NCBI GenBank assembly: GCA_010093705.1
Contig: MU006090.1
Coordinates: 1,329,817-1,393,816, forward strand
Reading direction: 5' to 3'
Origin: Patellaria atrata CBS 101060
Taxonomy: Eukaryota
Length of the DNA: 64,000 bases
Shown here: one piece after another, positions 2,242 to 23,530 of the stretch
Position numbering within the stretch: position 1 is the stretch's first letter
How the letters are laid out: the number at the start of each line of letters is the position of its first letter
Position numbers and translations under genes: made by a program
Notes under the pieces: generated by a model
Told to the model about the DNA's origin: nothing
What the model saw: only the letters and a program-made list of their open reading frames with translations
Database searches by the model: none

Positions 2242-5200
2242 TGTGAGGCTCTCTAGAGTGGCACTGACTCTGTTATTAGTCGGATCGTTGCAATTGGATT
2301 GCTCATCAAGATGACGGATGGAATTCGATCGAAGAGAAGCGCAGCGATGAGGACGACATGAAGATAGGAGATGTGCGGGAGTCGGGGAGTCTCAAAGTAT
2401 ACACTCACACTGGATGCGAGTACTGGGGTAGGGCGCACTCGGCCAGAACTCTAAGAGCTCTCTACTCGACCCTTACACAGTGTGTGGAGGTTGCTCGAGA
2501 AGCGGTACGGCTCTCAGGGCCCCACGCAGCGTGACTAGGATGGTCTGCTGTGTAAGGAGAGAACTGCATGCGCCCGTTCTGGGAGAGAGATGTGAGAAAG
2601 GTTGCAAATAGGTACAACAGAGTAAAACGTGCAGCTGGGAGAGAGGATACGGTGCAAGAAAAGGACGTAGAACCGCCAGAGAGGTCGTGTATAGTGCAAT
2701 CCAACAGTAGCCGAATCAGGGCTCGGCGCTTAGAGGCGGACAGAAGTACAGGATATACTTAGAGTAGAACTCACCAGGACTCGATTACAGAACAGCCACT
2801 GCAATTGCAGAAGAAGAAGAGACGCGTGAGAAATAGAAAGCAACTGCTCTGTATGTGAACTGCAAGCCCAGAGGTGAGGCGTTTAACCGCTAGGGTTGGA
2901 TAACGAGCGAGTGAAGCTTCACAGGGCTATATGGGATAGGATTAATAGAATAGCCAGTGAAGGCTGGGATGTCGACCAGAAGCCAGTACAAGTACCTTAT
3001 TACCTCGTACCTCATCCTCTTCAGTGATCACCCAAGCTCCAGACCATCCTGGAAGGCTTTAAAGACGATCGCACCTTTTTTCTCTCCTGCTCACTTTACT
3101 TTCACTTGCTCACAACCTCTTGATCGGTCTGATGAGATCAAGCGATTCAAGCGAAAATAACCCCAGGGACTCAAGGGACCCATTTGGAGGCCGCTAAACA
3201 GGGAGCGTGATGTGGACTCGACGAAAGTCGTTTTTGCTCTTTTGCTGCCATTTCGCATTTTGGAAAGCAACACAAATTGTGCGATTGGACTGGGTTTCAT
3301 GCGTGATGCTCTCAAGCACAGTGATGAAGATGCTGTGTGGTTGGAAGAGTGATGTGCTATCCAGGAACGAGTAAGGATGGACGGCATGTTGGGGGAGGCA
3401 AAAAGCCCAATCGGATGGGAGGAGGCACCTGAGATAGAGCAAGTTCCATGTCTTTTCCGTGCAAGTGGCTGCATCTCAATGCATCCATCACAGAAGTGTC
3501 CAAATATTCGGGCCAATTGTTATTGAAATCAAATGTCCGCCATCTTGGACGTTTTCGCAAGCATAAGCTAAGTTAATGGGGGGGAGCATTATTAGAACTA
3601 GCAACTCTGCAAGGTCCATGATTATTTCCCGCTTCGACATGCAAACTCTTCCCCCCAAAAGTCAGTAATACCAAAGAAACATGGGGAATATCCGTAATGC
3701 TCGACATTCGTCCAGAGAAGTCCAGCCTTAATCAGATCTCCATCGCCTGATGCAGTAGTGCTGGACCTCTCAAATCCACACAAAGAAGAATGTTGAAAAT
3801 TGATATAACTCTTCCGCCCAAAATACTTAAAGGGCAAAGGAACTCCCCCTATTTTTATTTTTTTTCTGATTGAATCCCAGGAATTCCTGCCCATCCTTTA
3901 GCCACTATGCAGACCCAAACATCATGCCGGAAGAGTATTAGAGCAATAGACGGTAGACCCCCAGGGGTCCGTATGCCATCATCTCTATGGCTGACCTCGC
4001 GGAATTGGCGCATCGTATTGCAGCTTTTTGGCTTTCTCAACGTTCGGGTCGAGAGTACGGTCACGTTGGTGGCACATAGATCGTGCCATGAAAGAAACAG
4101 CAGCATCAACTCGTGGTACAGACTACGGAGTACAGTAAGAGGAGTGAGAAGGAGGTGAAAGCATAACCGCGAGAACGTAATCTCTCAACGTTTCGAGATT
4201 GAGATACTGGTTCACCGCGTACCCACATCTTGACGTGTTCGAGGCAACGCGACCTCTTCTGCAGCCGTATCGACAGGCATTCCATGTTCCATGAGAAAGG
4301 ATGATAGATTGATGGGTCCTGAATTTCACTATTTCCCCGTCCATAGAGAGCCCGATTGCGGTGACGATGTTTATCGATAGGAATTTATGAGATAGCGGTG
4401 ATATGATAACATATGCCTTGCTGCCACAGGTGCCATCAGCCATCTCCACAAAGCATAGCCAAAAGACATAATAGTCATAGCTTCTCCATGGCATGACGGC
4501 TTTCAATTGCGACAATTGTTTCGGTACGGGAAGAACCTTACCGTGTGAGGTGACTTACATTCGGTCAAAGCGCCCCCCAGGTCGATCCTGGATGGGCCTA
4601 TGCTCTTCGAGTGTGCGCTCTGTTAAAGCATAAACTCTTTCAAGGTGCGTATCGACAATAATGAAAAGCCTTGATTCAGATGAGCCTCATCGTAGGGGGC
4701 CAAAGGACAATATATTCGCGGCTATGTGTAACGAAGACCATGTTCGAAAAACTCTCCATTGCAGGTAGGTAAATAAAGAACATTCTGACATTATCATTGT
4801 AGCTATAATTGTGATATTACTTTGAAGCCTGAGATGCTTAACAAGTTCCATTGTGACTTCGTTCTTCCTTCCTCATGCTAGCCCATGCTAAGCGCCCGCA
4901 CTAAACCCGCGGGCCTAATTCACCTCCCTCTTCGTATTCAAGCAGATAGAAAATTCTGCACAATTGCAAGAACAAGCAACTATGCACAATCCCGTGCGAA
5001 TAACTTCCTTCCAGAATAATGCCGACCCCCGCTATACACTAATGAAAAAAAAATTATCTTTCCCCAAGCTCGAGCCTATCCAACCCCAGGCGGAGCCTCG
5101 CGATAGGGCGGGACAAGTCTGGACTCAACCCCCATACGCTACACCCACCCCCATATCTTTTTTTAAGGCCAGTCGCCTCGTAGACAAAACCCCACCACTC

Positions 5201-15187: not shown

Positions 15188-17400
15188 AAAAAAAATAAAA
15201 TGCCATCCCGTAGGATGGCATGGCCTCCTCGGCCCTTTCCTCCACACTTCCCCACCCTTTCCGCCAGATGAGCATCCTTCCGACCAGGTCGTCCCCTCCG
15301 CTGCCCGACATCGACCATGAAACAAGAACAACGTTGAGCCGGGTAGATCTAAAACAGAGGTCTTGCACTAGGTGAACGCATCGAATCAGCACCGGCTGCT
15401 TCGACACCGATAGAGACTCAAAAGAACCAAAGGGAACTCCACGTGAACAACAACCAGCAGACAACGTCCCGCAGACAAGCCTTGACTTTGAGCCTCACTC
15501 TAGAGAGGTCCCGCGTTCGAATTGCCCGTGATCCAGTTGCGGTCCACGCTTCATCCCTTTATCTCCCTGCTCTACCAATGGCGACCCCTTCGAAAACTCG
15601 CGCGTTGAACACCGAGAAGGTGTGCATTTCCAATTTGATAGACGCCAGACTCTGCTGATACCTGAGACCAAGGTGAAGTGATCGGGTTTGAGAAGAAACA
15701 GTGGGCATTGCCTCTTTCGTGATACACACCTTGGCCCCAATTGCAATCTCTTTCTCCACAGCTGTTTCTCCAAGTCTCAATCTTCTCGATTGCTTCTGTG
15801 AAAACACCGTGCCACTTTTCAACTCTCAACAACCAAACCCCGGGGTCGGGAAGGCCTCTCTCTGTTGTTATTGCATTCCTCTCGGAGACAGTCTTTGTTT
15901 CCTCTCCGGCGTGATTCCGGAGGGCGTTGATAAGCGGACAAAGTACATCTACAAAAAACCGCTTACATCTCCCGCAGGAGGAGTTTGACACAACTGTGGT
16001 GGGTCATGACAAACGATATCGGCGTTCATCGATCGACCGTACGCTAAACGTATGATGAGATGATTAAGCGTGGCTGATCCAGACATCACTATGAAGTGAC
16101 AGTGCCTATGGCTGATGCCGCGGCAAGGGCCTTCGCACAACTATCACATGTGCCCGGGTTGGAGACAGGAGCAGTCCGCAAGGACATCGCTGGAGAGACG
16201 TACGGGACATCTTCACCTTTGCTGGCCCCTGATTTCTATCAACTTTTCGACTGCAACCTTTACTTACCATAAACCAATTGTATGCTTGAGCAACGCTAAG
16301 GCTGAGATGAGTTTTCACCTGCGGCTGCGTCGGGAACGGTGTTTACCGGGATACACTCTTATCAAATTTCGAACGCAGGGCGTGGCGGACTGCCATTGCC
16401 TTCAGAAAGACGCCTGACTGAAGGTGATCACCCTTTCCCTAGTCTCTGTTGAAACTCAAAGGCCTCGCTACGTGTATGACACGATTCAGACGAGTGGACC
16501 TTTGAGAATGGGAACTCAAATCCCGAGGGTAGATCGTGGGATGATCTGTTGTAAGCTTAGCTCTCCAGGAGAGTTAGATTCGCGCTCAATTCTAGTTTGA
16601 TAAGAGTAATCCGTCGTAGCTCGCCCCTCAGCAGTCGTAGACACTACTAAAAGTGCTAATGAAAAACCCTCAGGCAGTCCGAAGCTCAACAATTGGAGTT
16701 TGGCGTCGCAGATATATAGTCCGATTGATAGAATCCAGCGGTAGCAAAGGCATGTGAAGATCCCAAGAACGATCCTCGTGGAGGTGTTCGACTTCTCTCA
16801 CCTGTTTCTCCCATAAGGTGTTGATGTGCAATTGATTGAAAACTGTCCAAGGTGACCAGAGTCTGACGTCTGTCATCCGGTTTCGACGCGCGCTCTCCCG
16901 GGAGAATCTTACCCAATTTTGGCGCATGAAGACCGGTTTCTAGCACCACGAGACCCACTTTCCCACCTTGATCGTCACCTAGAGCGCAGTTAAGCATTCT
17001 AGGGAGTTCAGGGTGTTTAGTCATGAGCCCCGGCAACTATATCCACGAGACTAAGCTTCACTAAGAAGCAAACCGATGAGGTGGAGTTAGGGTTAAGTTC
17101 CAGATTCCATCCACCTCAAAATACCCTTTTTTACAATGTTGCCATCGCAGCACTGCAAGCGGCAGCAGCCGATACTCTGGTGAGACCATGCTATGAGGCT
17201 CGAGTAAGGTGGTGAAACTTCACAGTGCAGGTATTATGAGGGGTCGTGAGACATCCTGACCGTGAGGCCCGAAGATGGAGATCGGGGACTGTGGGGAGAG
17301 TGAGGTGCATTTGAATACCCACCGTAGTGAGCGAGAGAAGAAGGGTTGGAGAGAGCTTCGAGCGACGCGTTGTTCCAACATCTGTCAACGTCGGACGAAC
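15188..17400 (-). ncRNA. TER: Telomerase RNA (TER/TR); 5' end approximate
   Basis: Template UAACCCUAAC at 17095-17086, candidate pseudoknot and P1, P6.1-like GAGUGAGGCUC at 15500-15490, U-tract and AUAAGU splice site at the 3' end. About 2 kb long, with no credible CDS. Confidence 0.88.
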
Positions 17401-17796: not shown

Positions 17797-20700
17797 ATGG
17801 TAACCTTACAAAAAGCCATTCAAAACGCTGAGGATTTCCTCCACCCGTTGAAAACAGCAAAGAGGTACTGGCCTCCTTGTGGTTATGTTAGTTAAGATAC
17901 TAAATATTACAGTGAAGAGCACAAGTCTCTCATCAACTGTCTTGCCACTTATGCAAATACTGCTGAGAATGGGGATGAGACCTCTGGACGAACACTAGTA
18001 TTGAGTCAAGCATTAGAGCTTCTTCAAGATATTCATAATGCCATTAAAGAGGAGAAAGCAAACCCATATCGTATCTTATTGCCAACAGGAGAACCATCAT
18101 CGGCAATCTTCCAGTTGCTAGATTTATTAGTTTTAGAAGGCATTATCCCGTTCTTATCTCTAGGAGTCGCAGTCCAACGTCGTCCGACGACAGCTCTGCC
18201 ATGGATATCCTTGTCTCCGCCGCAAGATCTAGACGTGGATGAAGGTATCCTTCGTCTAACGATAGATGGTTTATTAGCTATATCTAGGGAAACCGATTCA
18301 GGACTAGAGCCTGTATTGCGGGATAGAATAATTGCTGATCTCATAGCCGGCAGTGCGGAACTATCTTTCTTTCCTCGTTATGCAAGCAACAAGGGGGAGA
18401 ACAGTAGTCCTAACCTTTTTCAAGTACTCCTAGATATGTACGTTCTATGTAGTTCCCTAAGTAAAAACCTGAATATATATTTCCACCCGCTTCCCAGGAC
18501 TTGACTGAGAATCTGTCATAGAACACCCACGGCTACTCTAATGCTCCAGCTAACCCACCTATTACAACAACAATTACCAGACTGGCTTCGCCCTCACCTG
18601 TCAAAAACGTTATCTTTATTACCTCTTCGTCCTCGGGGCGTACGTACGGTTATCAGTTTCATCGCAGCATCCCACCCCTTACCTCCCGCAGCAGAAGACC
18701 AGTTTGAAGCCTTGCCCAACTCTCAGGGCCCTCCGCTGCCCCTCGAAGCCCTCCAGCAAGCTACAAAGCTACTGTCTTCAGTCCCGAGCTCGATGAACCT
18801 AGGGAGCTATTATTCTGCATTAGCACTCCAGTTATGGGAGCTTTTAGATGGAGGCGATGGTCCTGAAATGGCTAGAGTGGCTGCTCACATTATCGGGAGC
18901 GGCATTCTTGGAAGGAGATCTGTCGGTGCTCCCGGCAAGATCGGATGGGTCCTGTTTGCAGATCCGATCATCGGTCCTCTCAATCCTTCTACAGTGCCGA
19001 GACTTTCTTCTTCTGAAAATGCCAGTAAGGCTTCACTTGGAAACCCTATAGTAGACGAACCAGCCCTTGCACTTGCCTTGAAACGGTTTGTCACGCTCGT
19101 TACTTCGCATCCTAACCCAGGGCTCACAAAACGGCTTGTTGGCCGAACGCTATTGCCGTTATGGGGTCTGCTTTGCTACTCGAAGTCTCATCAGGTGAGC
19201 CCAGTCTGGGCAGAACGAGCTGAACTGCTTCTTTCATCCTTCATTAGACTCGGCGCGGGGCTCCCAGAGCTCGAAATGCTCACGTCAGACCTCCTATGGG
19301 ATGGCACTCCTCAGTGGATGTATAGCCGCGGAAGTGACGGCGGAATCGAGATACGGCTGAGGAGTGCCACAGAGAGTGACGCTCTTAATATTATCGAAAC
19401 TATGAACCAGATTGATAAGCGGATGGAAGCTTTCACGGGACTGCTCTCATTAAGCTCCGTGGATAAGGACATGGCCTGTCGACTGTTCACTGTGATCACT
19501 AAGCGGTGGCTCCTTCCGAAGCAAGTAACAAATACCGCGGCTCTTTCTTTAGAGGTTAATGCAGAGCCGGATCCTCTACAGACTTTCGCAAATGCTAAGC
19601 TTGTGCAAGTTATGCTGGAGCAGACTAAAGACAAGTTTGCCGAAAATCCAATCCATATCCTAGAATTAGTTAAGCAGTTACTGGAACAACATGTGGAAAA
19701 CGAGAAATACCAGTCTAAACGCAAACAAGACGTGAAAATGGCCCGATATGCAGGACTGAGCAGCATTGTACAGCACGACACCGCCGCAACGGAAGACCCG
19801 TCCGACCTCGAAGCTGCTGGAGACGAATCAATTGACCTCATAACCATGGCCACCAGCATCCTCACGACCATCACAACATCCAAAGACTTCAGCCTAACAC
19901 CGCAGACGCTATCAACCCTCTCCTCCACGCTTCCACTACTCACCCATCTCACCTCAAATCCCTCAAAATTCCCACGATCTGTCCTCAACACAGTCAACCA
20001 TCTCCTTACGACCATTACCGCACTAACCATCACCTCATCGACCTCACCGCACTCTTCCTCCCTGCCTAACCCCACCAATACAACCGACAACGACACCCAA
20101 GTCCTCCGCACCGCTCTCCAAAACCTCACCTCCCCCCTCCCCCCCATCCGCGTCGAATCCCTCCACACGCTCCACAACCTCATCAAATCCCACTCCCCCG
20201 TCCTCCCGATCCCAACCCTAACCACCCTCCTCATCTCCACCGGCCTCTCGGACCCCGAAAGCTACGTCCACCTGTACGCCATAAAAACCCTCGTGGCCCT
20301 CACAATCCGCGAGTCCCGCGTTGCCGGCCCGCTCGTCGTAGACGCGCTGCTGGACCCCAAGGAGGAAGGGGGCCTGGACGTTCGTCTCAGGCTCTGCGAG
20401 GCCGCAACGCAGATCGTGGAGGGCATTGCGGAAGGAAAGAGCGAGCGGACTCAGGGGCGCGTGTTGGTGGGGAAGATCGGCGCTGCTGTCGTCGCGGTGG
20501 CGTCGAGGAGGGGGAGACGGCCTCGGACGCTGGCTGCGCGGGAGAAAGCGGCGAGGGTGGAGGATGCGAGACGGATGGAACGGGAGGAGGTGCTTGGCGA
20601 GGCGGCTGCGGCGTTGGATGCATTAGATGAGTTGGATGAAGATGGGAATCCGATACCGGCTGCGAAGGTCTTGGAGAGGGAACAACTGAGCAGGATTGTG

Positions 20701-21231
20701 CAGGGCTGGGCGGATGTGGGGTTGGAAGAGGATGTGAGGGTCCGCGCGTCGGCGATTGCTGTACTGGCGAAGGTTGCGGAGGTGGCGCCGGAGGGGTTTA
20801 CGACACAGGGGTTGGATCAGGCGGCGGAGCTATGTATCGCTGTTCTCGTCCTCGAGACGAAACCCGAGAAGGCGATTCTGAGGCGCGCTGCTGTACTCGT
20901 GTTTTTGGGCGTCTTGAGGGCAATGGATAAAGCGCTAGAGGAGGGGAGGGAGGTACATGTTGGTCTCGAGGGGAAGAGATGGGAGGAGGTGGAGAAGGTG
21001 TTGAAGTGGGTACGAGATGAGGATCAGGACGATATTGTTAAAGGTCATGCTGGAGTTGTGCGGGAGGGATTGGAGGATTGGAGGATGAAGAGGTTGCTTG
21101 GTATTGAGAGAGATATCTCTGCGGATTTGACGCCTAGATTTGGGCTTGAGGGACGATTGAGAGGTTTGGGTGTTGATCCTGAGGTAAGTGTGAGGGGGAA
21201 GAGAGTTGTAGTTGAGGAGATAGAGGATTAA
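17797..21231 (+). CDS. RTP1: RNA polymerase II assembly/import factor Rtp1 (TANGO6-like ARM/HEAT protein)
   Basis: Exons 17797-17864, 17913-18437 and 18522-21231. Motifs LSLLPLRPRGVR, L.SPLPPIRVESL, LSDPESYVHLYAIK and EDVRVRASA. Confidence 0.85.
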
Positions 21232-21550
21232 GCTATCTTTTTCCTTTCCATGCGGCTCATCATTCACTTACTTCCTGTTGTCAATCAAGGTATTTACTGA
21301 GCAAAAAAGCCATCAAATGAAAAGATAACTGAGCGGGGAAATCGTTTGTGGTTTAAGGAGATAGATGATTGAGCTATCCTTTTTCATTTCAATGGAGTTT
21401 CTAACTCACATACTTACCTTATTTACACTTGTAATTTAATAAGATTTCCTACATTCTTAGGCGAAGAGATAGCATGTAGTCAATGAAGATATTTACTTAG
21501 CAAAAAGAAAAGCACATCAACTAAATCAAAAGACAAATAAGGGGAGAAAA
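21211..21550. repeat. Degenerate tandem duplication of the RTP1 stop/3'UTR segment
   Basis: Copy 1 (~21211-21340) GAGGAGATAGAGGATTAAGCTATC...GTCAATCAAGGTATTTACTGAGCAAAAAAG. Copy 2 (~21351-21550) AAGGAGATAGATGATTGAGCTATC...GTCAATGAAGATATTTACTTAGCAAAAAG, with an insertion. Confidence 0.8.
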
Positions 21551-21559
21551 GAAAAAGCA

Positions 21560-21752
21560 AAAGGAAATTTTCCCTTCGATACGGCCCTCCCCTCCGCATC
21601 GTTCTCAGCGGCTATCCTCTGAGTCCCCTCCCGCCATTATTGAAATGGAACCGCCGAGGATTGAACACAAGGCATTTCGGGAGACCACGATCGCAAGTTC
21701 TGCTGCGGGATAAGAGCTGATCTCTTACCAACTTGACTAACGTGGGTTTGTT
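21560..21752 (-). ncRNA. Structured ~190-nt ncRNA with RNA polymerase III promoter layout, family unassigned
   Basis: A box TAGTCAAGTTGG (21739-21728), B box GTTCAATCC (21666-21658), TATA-like element at ~21784-21777, T-run terminators at ~21563-21547, several nested hairpins. Confidence 0.65.
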
Positions 21753-22187
21753 AAAAACCTTGCGCCTGTCACTTCAAATATAAAGTAAGTGCCCCAAACC
21801 GAAGGTTGGGTAAGGGATAACTAAGGATGCAAGTGAAAGGAATCTCTTCACATGGTTACGATACTTGGCGTCTTATCTGATACTGTGTTGTTATCTTTTA
21901 TGGCAGGCTTATGCAAACTGCGTGAAAGTGACTGTGATAAAGGAGAAGTTGTATATTATTCAGATACAATGTCTGCATTCTTCTATTGTATGTCTAAGAT
22001 ATGGATTCCCAGCTCCCTAGATCCAAATGCTTCGTGAGGAACTTTTTAGGGCTGCGGTCGCGTCCTCCATCACCGACTGCCAACCGCAATGCCAAACCTC
22101 TAACCAGCTATGAGCGCAGATAGCAGCGCTTCGATCCATCCGCAGCAGAATTTTATCCATGTTATATCGAGACCCCATACCCCTTCC

Positions 22188-22801
22188 TCACCCAGACATA
22201 TCCGTATCTCCCTTCGGACCCGCCGCCGACATCCAAAGCACGTTATTACACCTATACACCATCAGCCACGCATTCCCACAACCACAACCCTCCAGTCCCA
22301 ACCGGCCATGACAATCCTCAAGCAACCCATAAGAAGTGTATGAAATAGCTCACCTTATCAGAACCTGTCCGAGATTCCCGGTGCTCTTCCCATCGATAAA
22401 CTCCTCGGTCCCGGCGAGTTGGATGTTCATGTAGCTATCCGCGCTGACAAGGCGGCCGCGGTACTCCGTCTCGCCCCATTTGAGGCGGATGATGACGTCT
22501 TGGTCGATGCTGGGGTGGTTGCGTTAGTTATGGGCTCTGGTGTGAGGGTATTGCATGAACGGTCTGCTGGAGTCGAAGGGCTAGAAGCAGAGTTTTCATC
22601 CAGGCCATCTGGATAGGAAAACGTAGCTGCGCATAGTGCACTTATGGGAAAGGATACGGGGTTTATTGGGGAGTATGGATGTGAATGAATGGAGGAAATG
22701 GCTTACAGCGACTGCAGCATCGGCCGCGGGTTGAGAGGGACGAATGCCTGTTATGGAGGTTAGATGGTATTATACCGTAGTTGCACATTACTTACACTCA
22801 T
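22188..22801 (-). CDS. SmF: Small nuclear ribonucleoprotein SmF
   Basis: Not present in the ORF track. Exons 22801-22796, 22747-22707, 22509-22354 and 22251-22188 give [47 protein letters not shown]...[14 protein letters not shown]. Confidence 0.95.
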
Positions 22802-23530
22802 TGTTTTCTTGGACTTATGTGGGAGTTTGGCTGAGCGCACTGCGGTTTTCGTCGCTTTGAGGTTGAAGCTCGAAATTCTGATGTTGAAGGTTCGGCTAAA
22901 GTTGCTGTTCTGGTCTTAGAACTAAAGCTCTCAGGCACTAAACTTCTGAAGTTGGACCTCCGCTCCATCTCTTATACATTGCAGCAACTTGCTATGACTT
23001 ACTATCTTTTCTATCAAGATAGGTTGTCTATCCTATATTACTTGTAGTAATTGATTTGAGGACCCAGTACGCCGAAGAACAGAAACACCAACCCGAAGTA
23101 TTTTATCAGACTATCAAATCTCGTCTGTACAGGATCTTCGTTGGCCTCAAACTCGCTGAAAGATCTTCATGGCTGTAAGTGTATAGTAAGCTACGAAAGC
23201 ATTGACAAGGGAAAGAAAGCTCCCAGATATCTCATATTCAAGAGCTCCAAAAACTACTACCTGAGCCATCGTTGAAAATAACTGTGCGTCTTCGTGCCCA
23301 TATCCTGATCCAGCTACCTGTAAAGATAGCATCTATGCTCGGATGCCGTCTCTTTAATTCCAAGCACAAGTAGGTAGCATACAAAGACTGAGTCGCCATG
23401 AGCAAAACTTACGTCTCACGTACATACAGCCAGCAAAATATCTCAGAAATCCCGCGTCTCAATCTCAATATATCGAAGCACATATAACTGTAGGAAATGA
23501 ATCGCTATACATCTATTCAAAGATTTGAAC

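Follow-up and report, generated by a model that had tools for sequence, protein, structure and literature searches.

Several SINE families have been described in fungi, including Foxy in Fusarium oxysporum, MgSINE in Magnaporthe, nrs1 in Nectria haematococca and SINE2-1_BG in Blumeria (PMC5063351). Low-copy fungal SINEs of about the size considered here are on record: nrs1 has 11 copies, and members of the AfuSINE families number 1-5 (PMC5063351). The AfuSINE2 candidates of Aspergillus fumigatus Af293 are 140-493 bp long, are present in 1-5 copies and carry degenerate A and B boxes (PMC5063351). Here we describe an element of Patellaria atrata that resembles these fungal SINEs in being short, non-coding and dispersed, in having A- and B-box-like motifs near its 5' end, in its low to moderate copy number and in its location in or near gene-rich DNA (PMC5063351). 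It is about 200-220 bp long and has about a dozen copies, unlike MgSINE at 472 bp, nrs1 at 500 bp and Foxy with about 160 copies (PMC5063351). It also differs from the fungal SINEs in its T-rich tail and in a head that is not detectably tRNA-like. The AfuSINE2 heads also have no cloverleaf fold, and some of these candidates have no clean target-site duplications (PMC5063351). Their hosts belong to a different fungal class than P. atrata. One of them, AfuSINE2-5d, has short words in common with our element around the B box and downstream of it, a likeness that was seen by eye and is taken as a lead only (PMC5063351).

The element can also be set beside Pol III genes. As in tRNA genes, its A box resembles the D-loop (AGTTGGTAA), its B box resembles the T-loop and a candidate T-run terminator follows; unlike tRNA genes, it has no cloverleaf and its predicted RNA is about 200 nt long. 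RPR1 and SNR52 of budding yeast, which are Pol III genes of the leader-promoter type, likewise have both boxes in their 5' part and an unrelated body after them. Each is present as a single copy, and its body can be recognised as RNase P or box C/D, whereas the element is multi-copy and matches neither RNase P, MRP nor snoRNA. Our analysis showed that the element belongs to a short non-coding dispersed repeat family, about 200-220 bp long, in the P. atrata genome.

Results

The locus between RTP1 and SmF

We analysed a stretch of 64 kb from P. atrata CBS 101060, which we refer to as the window. The element occupies the minus strand from about 21757 to 21540, in the AT-rich gap between the convergent 3' ends of RTP1 on the plus strand and SmF on the minus strand (Table 1). 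The gap between the two stops is 957 bp. Within it, the element shares the strand of SmF, about 430 nt downstream of the inferred stop of that gene. From the RTP1 stop, which is on the opposite strand, it is about 310 nt away on the downstream side. We found that GC content is 0.51-0.54 over 21550-21749 compared with 0.29-0.40 in the flanks, and this GC island within AT-rich DNA looks like an insertion.

Table 1. Positions of the repeat, its motifs and the neighbouring genes in the window
Feature	Position	Strand	Basis or remark
RTP1, last long exon or ORF	18541..21231	+	Pfam RTP1_C1 E = 1.8e-19, RTP1_C2 E = 2.1e-07
Repeat unit, one copy of the dispersed family	21540..21757	-	Depth, contig breaks, loose ends
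Candidate Pol III terminator, T-run cluster (T4, G C, T5, C, T4)	21562-21547	-	T-run scan
Repeat core, most copies at least 90% alike, with B box and two small hairpins	21591..21679	-	Contig depth
B-box-like motif GTTCAATCC	21666-21658	-	Motif in sequence
A-box-like motif TAGTCAAGTTGG	21739-21728	-	18 nt inside the repeat 5' boundary
TATA-like motif TTTATATTT	21784-21776	-	19-27 nt upstream of the repeat 5' boundary
SmF, LSM-domain exon 22523-22350 and last exon with stop at about 22188	22188..22523	-	Pfam LSM E = 2.5e-15

The RTP1 reading frame is 100% identical to a protein of P. atrata CBS 101060, and the next best of the 120 listed matches reaches only 45%, indicating that the source lineage is an isolated dothideomycete and not an Aspergillus. 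The frame in the window encodes 896 aa compared with 1100 aa for the identical database protein, so that at least one further exon lies upstream of 18541. For SmF, the exon join and the position of the stop are our own reading of the frames.

The 3' region of SmF showed an irregularity in X2, one of the two DNA runs that are presented below. Contigs of this run break at 22171/22191, their depth is slightly raised over 22077-22238, and two alternative 61-mers cover 22149-22209, with depths of 286.5 and 5.6 and with 0 and 2 other letters, respectively. The anomaly at 22149-22209 may reflect polymorphism, a small repeat or a bubble in the assembly.

Copies of the element at other loci

Contigs of two DNA runs from one sample, X1 and X2, were aligned to 20700-23100. 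That both runs are DNA is indicated by a 6538-nt contig that spans SmF, the inferred intron included, and shows 0 gaps and 0 other letters there; joints were not reported either. The sample is possibly the source of the window assembly itself, and the evidence for repetition within the genome is not weakened by this. Summed contig depth, which serves as a rough copy count only, was 325.7 to the left and 318.8 to the right of the element in X1 and peaked at 4365 over the element. In X2 the flanks had depths of 392 and 481.1, and the peak over the element was 5586. Flanking depth was otherwise flat, apart from the slight rise over 22077-22238 in X2, and the increase was about 13-fold in both runs. 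The three bins over 21510-21752 had depths of 1454, 4365 and 955 in X1, and of 1290, 5586 and 1593 in X2.

The contigs themselves gave the same picture. Long contigs ended at 21597 (X1) or 21592 (X2) and restarted at 21644. On 20700-23100, X1 yielded 28 contigs, 11 of them at 99% or above, 7 at 95-99% and 10 at 90-95%; the corresponding numbers for the 56 contigs of X2 were 13, 21 and 22. Short contigs that are 90-99% alike cover the element by the dozen. Nine of them were listed, and eight of these had depths of 226-420, near that of the single-copy flanks, with the remaining one at a depth of 14. Furthermore, contigs left the element into differing flanks at 21559, 21690, 21694 and 21740. 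Together, the depth jump, the contig breaks, the variant contigs and the differing flanks establish a dispersed family. It has roughly a dozen copies, of which the element is one; they have diverged, are found at different loci and are at least 90% alike in the core. No second copy was found within the window.

Boundaries, tail and divergence of the repeat

The 5' boundary of the repeat was placed from a single other copy, the one with its loose end at 21740. Compared by eye, this copy agrees with the window in 15 of 17 letters up to about 21757 and in 4 of 13 beyond it, which is the level of random sequence. Because the likeness stops there, the start of the unit would be about 18 nt upstream of the A box. 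For the 3' end, only a range within the T-rich tail can be given, about 21559-21540 on the minus strand. Two other copies, with loose ends at 21559 and 21576, share by eye the sequence GGGAAA(A)TTTCC, a run of four or five Ts, a G, a second T-run and more T-rich sequence; the second T-run is 5, 6 or 9 letters long among the copies. Since a T-rich 3' end is common to three copies, the tail appears to belong to the repeat unit, with variable run length. The three visible copies also seem alike past the first T-run (G, second T-run, C, third T-run). A transcript that ended at the first terminator would lack this later shared tail, which counts against reading the element as a SINE.

At the inferred and uncertain ends of the window copy, we found neither terminal inverted repeats nor a flanking direct repeat that could be a target-site duplication. 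The 7-nt sequence G(G/C)TTTTT occurs on both sides and was rejected as a target duplication, because its pattern of a G and a T-run is common to other copies and is hence part of the tail.

A 12-nt direct repeat is present on the plus strand, as AGCAAAAAGAAA and AGCAAAAGGAAA at 21499-21510 and 21556-21567, 57 nt apart. One of the two lies in the T-rich tail of the element and the other in the flank, and they may represent a partial duplication of the tail or merely low-complexity DNA.

Conservation among the copies was highest in the core of the unit. The top depth bin covers 21591-21671, and the listed short variant contigs span 21576-21679. At all six listed variable places the letter of the window is that of the majority, and the B-box block has no reported variant that reaches 10% among the copies. 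Copies differ by substitutions and by indels, as many as 6 other letters and 4 gaps within 96 nt, and one copy, judged by eye, is only about 70% alike in a stretch between the A and B boxes. Divergence of this kind fits the decay of copies better than selection on a family of RNA genes.

Pol III-like motifs

The A- and B-box-like motifs are correctly ordered on a single strand near the 5' end of the repeat, 73 nt apart from start to start and with 61 nt between them. Transcription from a type-2 promoter would be expected to begin at the boundary 18 nt ahead of the A box. Between 21752 and 21563 the sequence is free of runs of at least four Ts, and T-runs come directly after this stretch on the minus strand. 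The TATA-like motif seems to lie outside the repeated unit, since the sole other copy with a visible upstream flank is unlike the window past about 21757; the motif would thus belong to the site of insertion and not to the repeat family.

We then compared the box pair with chance expectation. A relaxed A and B pair was found once in the window compared with 0.51 expected, and at least one such pair occurred in 35% of 200 shuffles. A stricter pair occurred in 2% of 400 shuffles, a figure biased by the pattern having been written after the sequence was seen. On their own, motifs and stems are no more than suggestive. The earlier note, which had been made from the sequence alone, was accurate in its description of the locus: the TATA-like element, the A box, the B box about 60 nt further on and the T-runs are all present on the minus strand as it had said, the element does lie between RTP1 and SmF, both identified by Pfam matches, and the GC-rich island in AT-rich DNA that it had noticed is borne out by the GC values given above.

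Fold, coding capacity and known RNA families

The minus-strand fold has a free energy of -61.1 kcal/mol, and the mean for shuffled sequence is -59.0 (z = -0.46); of the 200 shuffles, 55 were as good; the plus-strand fold gave z = +0.22. Two small hairpins are predicted in the repeat core, at 21648-21634 and 21623-21604. Among the six variable places listed for the copies, an A to G change at 21646 keeps a hairpin pair as G-U and a C to A change at 21610 breaks a predicted pair, both as judged by eye. Since only six places are listed, with one pair kept and one broken, covariation could not be used. Open frames across the element reach 62 aa at most.

Searches for known RNA families gave no assignment. 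ARAGORN found no tRNA gene in the whole window, and an Rfam search of the head (21640-21762) at E <= 10 returned no match at all, the tRNA model included. Without an ARAGORN or Rfam tRNA match, the head cannot be called tRNA-derived. At gathering scores, Rfam reported nothing in the region of the element. At E <= 10, the matches over 21400-21950 were at chance level only (mir-6, Pinc, eiav_FSE, MIR528, MAT2A_E and snR81, with E = 1.3-8.8). We rejected H/ACA or box C/D snoRNA, RNase P/MRP, U-snRNAs, 5S and 7SL as identities for the element, as none had a match to its Rfam model.

These results divide the remaining claims of the earlier note. Its view that the element is not a canonical tRNA agrees with the negative ARAGORN and Rfam tRNA results, and the lack of 5S, U6, SRP, RNase P/MRP or box C/D hallmarks that it reported is matched by the lack of any Rfam family; the Aspergillus Afu_ families, which it had proposed as a check, likewise gave no Rfam match. 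Six of the seven stems that it had drawn are found in the minimum-free-energy fold and the CGCA/TGCG stem is absent. The claim of a structured RNA did not hold, as the fold is no better than that of shuffled sequence, and the word orphan does not apply to a stretch that is multi-copy in the organism's own DNA runs. Because of this multi-copy state and of stems at shuffle level, its headline of a single-copy orphan structured ncRNA is unsupported.

The only Rfam match in the window at gathering scores was a piece of telomerase RNA elsewhere. Telomerase_Asco matched 15887-15962 on the minus strand with 30.3 bits (gathering score 30) and E = 2.5e-05, over model positions 1285-1381. A template-like TTAACCCTAAC is located at 17086-17094 on the same strand, about 1130 nt upstream of this match, and only short ORFs of 92-139 aa lie between the two. 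AACCCTAAC occurs twice in the window compared with 0.36 expected. A minus-strand telomerase RNA gene is likely at these positions.

Relatives in other genomes and in the literature

A 21-mer across the B box had no match in metagenomes. A 19-mer of the core matched four metagenome loci, which were alike over 19-24 nt only and were attributed to chance. In the translated search, the 62-aa plus-strand frame gave no candidate. A 53-aa minus-strand frame had three matches in a representative protein library, all of them long, internally repetitive proteins, two of which resemble bacterial surface proteins; we judged these matches spurious, because short stretches were matched several times over in repetitive proteins.

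Literature searches were also negative. The 16-17-mers of the element and their reverse complements did not occur in the searchable paper text, and the 13-17-mers (one as reverse complement) were absent from the supplement of PMC5063351. No paper on repeats of Patellaria atrata was among the literature matches listed, and the whole word 'SINE' has 0 occurrences in PMC4522978. Thus, the metagenome, paper-text and translated searches found no relative of the element outside the P. atrata genome. This absence says little, because the nearest sequenced relative stands at 45% protein identity.

Discussion

The family is most likely a SINE-like element of an ordinary, already known kind. More specifically, we assign a probability of about 0.5 to the reading that the element belongs to a SINE-like retroposon family of low copy number, with an internal type-2 promoter for Pol III and either active or a relic. 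The element is short, as SINEs are (100-600 bp), it is non-coding, and it is dispersed in several copies. The alternative that the earlier note had offered, a SINE-like relic, fits best, with dispersed diverged copies and with A- and B-box-like motifs where the head of a Pol III retroposon would be expected. Neither ARAGORN nor Rfam at E <= 10 found the tRNA-homologous head or cloverleaf of a tRNA-derived SINE2. SINE tails are usually A-rich and can also consist of simple repeats or of sequence in common with a partner LINE; at the 3' end of this element we found no A-rich or simple-repeat tail but a T-rich one on the promoter strand. Since no tRNA likeness and no target duplication were seen, the tail is T-rich and the likeness seems to extend past the first terminator, we describe the element as SINE-like and not as a tRNA-derived SINE2.

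Pol III transcription, retroposition and any present activity of the family are inferred here. In such a scheme, TFIIIC would bind the A box and the B box (Table 1) and TFIIIB would be positioned upstream. Pol III would start near the 5' boundary of the repeat, at about 21757-21750, and would stop in the T-run cluster, giving an RNA of about 190-205 nt. A LINE reverse transcriptase could then copy this RNA into new sites, and the present copy would have been inserted where two convergent genes leave an AT-rich gap between their 3' ends, a place in which it would do little harm.

Alternatively, the element may be a dispersed repeat of a different sort, such as a solo LTR, a piece or terminus of some larger transposon or a short repeat of no established class, in which the boxes are coincidental and Pol III has no part. 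We consider this explanation rather unlikely. It accommodates the multi-copy state, and chance by itself is expected to supply a relaxed A and B pair 0.51 times per window; the missing tRNA likeness, the missing target-site duplication and a tail that is T-rich instead of A-rich are consistent with it as well. However, coincidence would have to account for boxes that are in order and at the right distance from the 5' boundary, followed by a body free of T-runs and then by T-runs, and the stricter pair was found in just 2% of shuffles, for a pattern chosen after the fact. The element also has neither terminal inverted repeats nor TG...CA ends, and a solo LTR was rejected for want of the latter. 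In addition, the flanks of other copies diverge right at the boundaries, so that in those copies it does not belong to any longer unit. A MITE was considered too; no inverted repeat was present at the inferred ends and the fold is not hairpin-like on either strand, which argues against it.

We regard it as improbable that the copies are genes for a functional Pol III small RNA, each with its own promoter and terminator, in the manner of dispersed 5S or tRNA genes. T-runs are kept at the 3' end of every visible copy, the core around the B box is the best kept part, the window copy has the majority letter at each of the six listed places and the change at 21646 preserves its pair, all of which speak for such genes. 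Selected RNA gene families are usually near-identical, whereas the divergence among copies of this element is as much as 10% in the core and about 30% over a stretch of the head, with indels. The fold at shuffle level, the lack of an Rfam family, the pair broken at 21610 and the lack of a relative found outside the P. atrata genome speak against functional genes in the same way. We see a slim chance that about a dozen lineage-specific Pol III RNA genes of about 200 nt, or intergenic TFIIIC sites, have been kept for the core with its B box and two hairpins. If a functional family did prove true, it would be a retroposon-born fungal counterpart of Y, vault or BC1-type RNAs.

A single-copy, locus-specific 'orphan' gene for a highly structured Pol III ncRNA is very hard to credit: the sequence does contain the motifs and the majority of the stems, but the stretch is multi-copy with variants in other flanks and its structure is not above chance (z = -0.46).

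The comparison made here also has a practical side: in contigs of an organism's own DNA, a depth jump together with contig breaks is a cheap way to tell a repeat from an orphan RNA gene. To our knowledge, SINEs have rarely been catalogued in Dothideomycetes, and the lineage of P. atrata is poorly studied and lacks a close relative with a sequenced genome. A family this small, whose promoter appears intact and whose tail is T-rich, would be a modest addition to fungal genomics. If some of its copies are transcribed, they may be useful as strain-typing markers and may act as local Pol III/TFIIIC sites adjoining genes.
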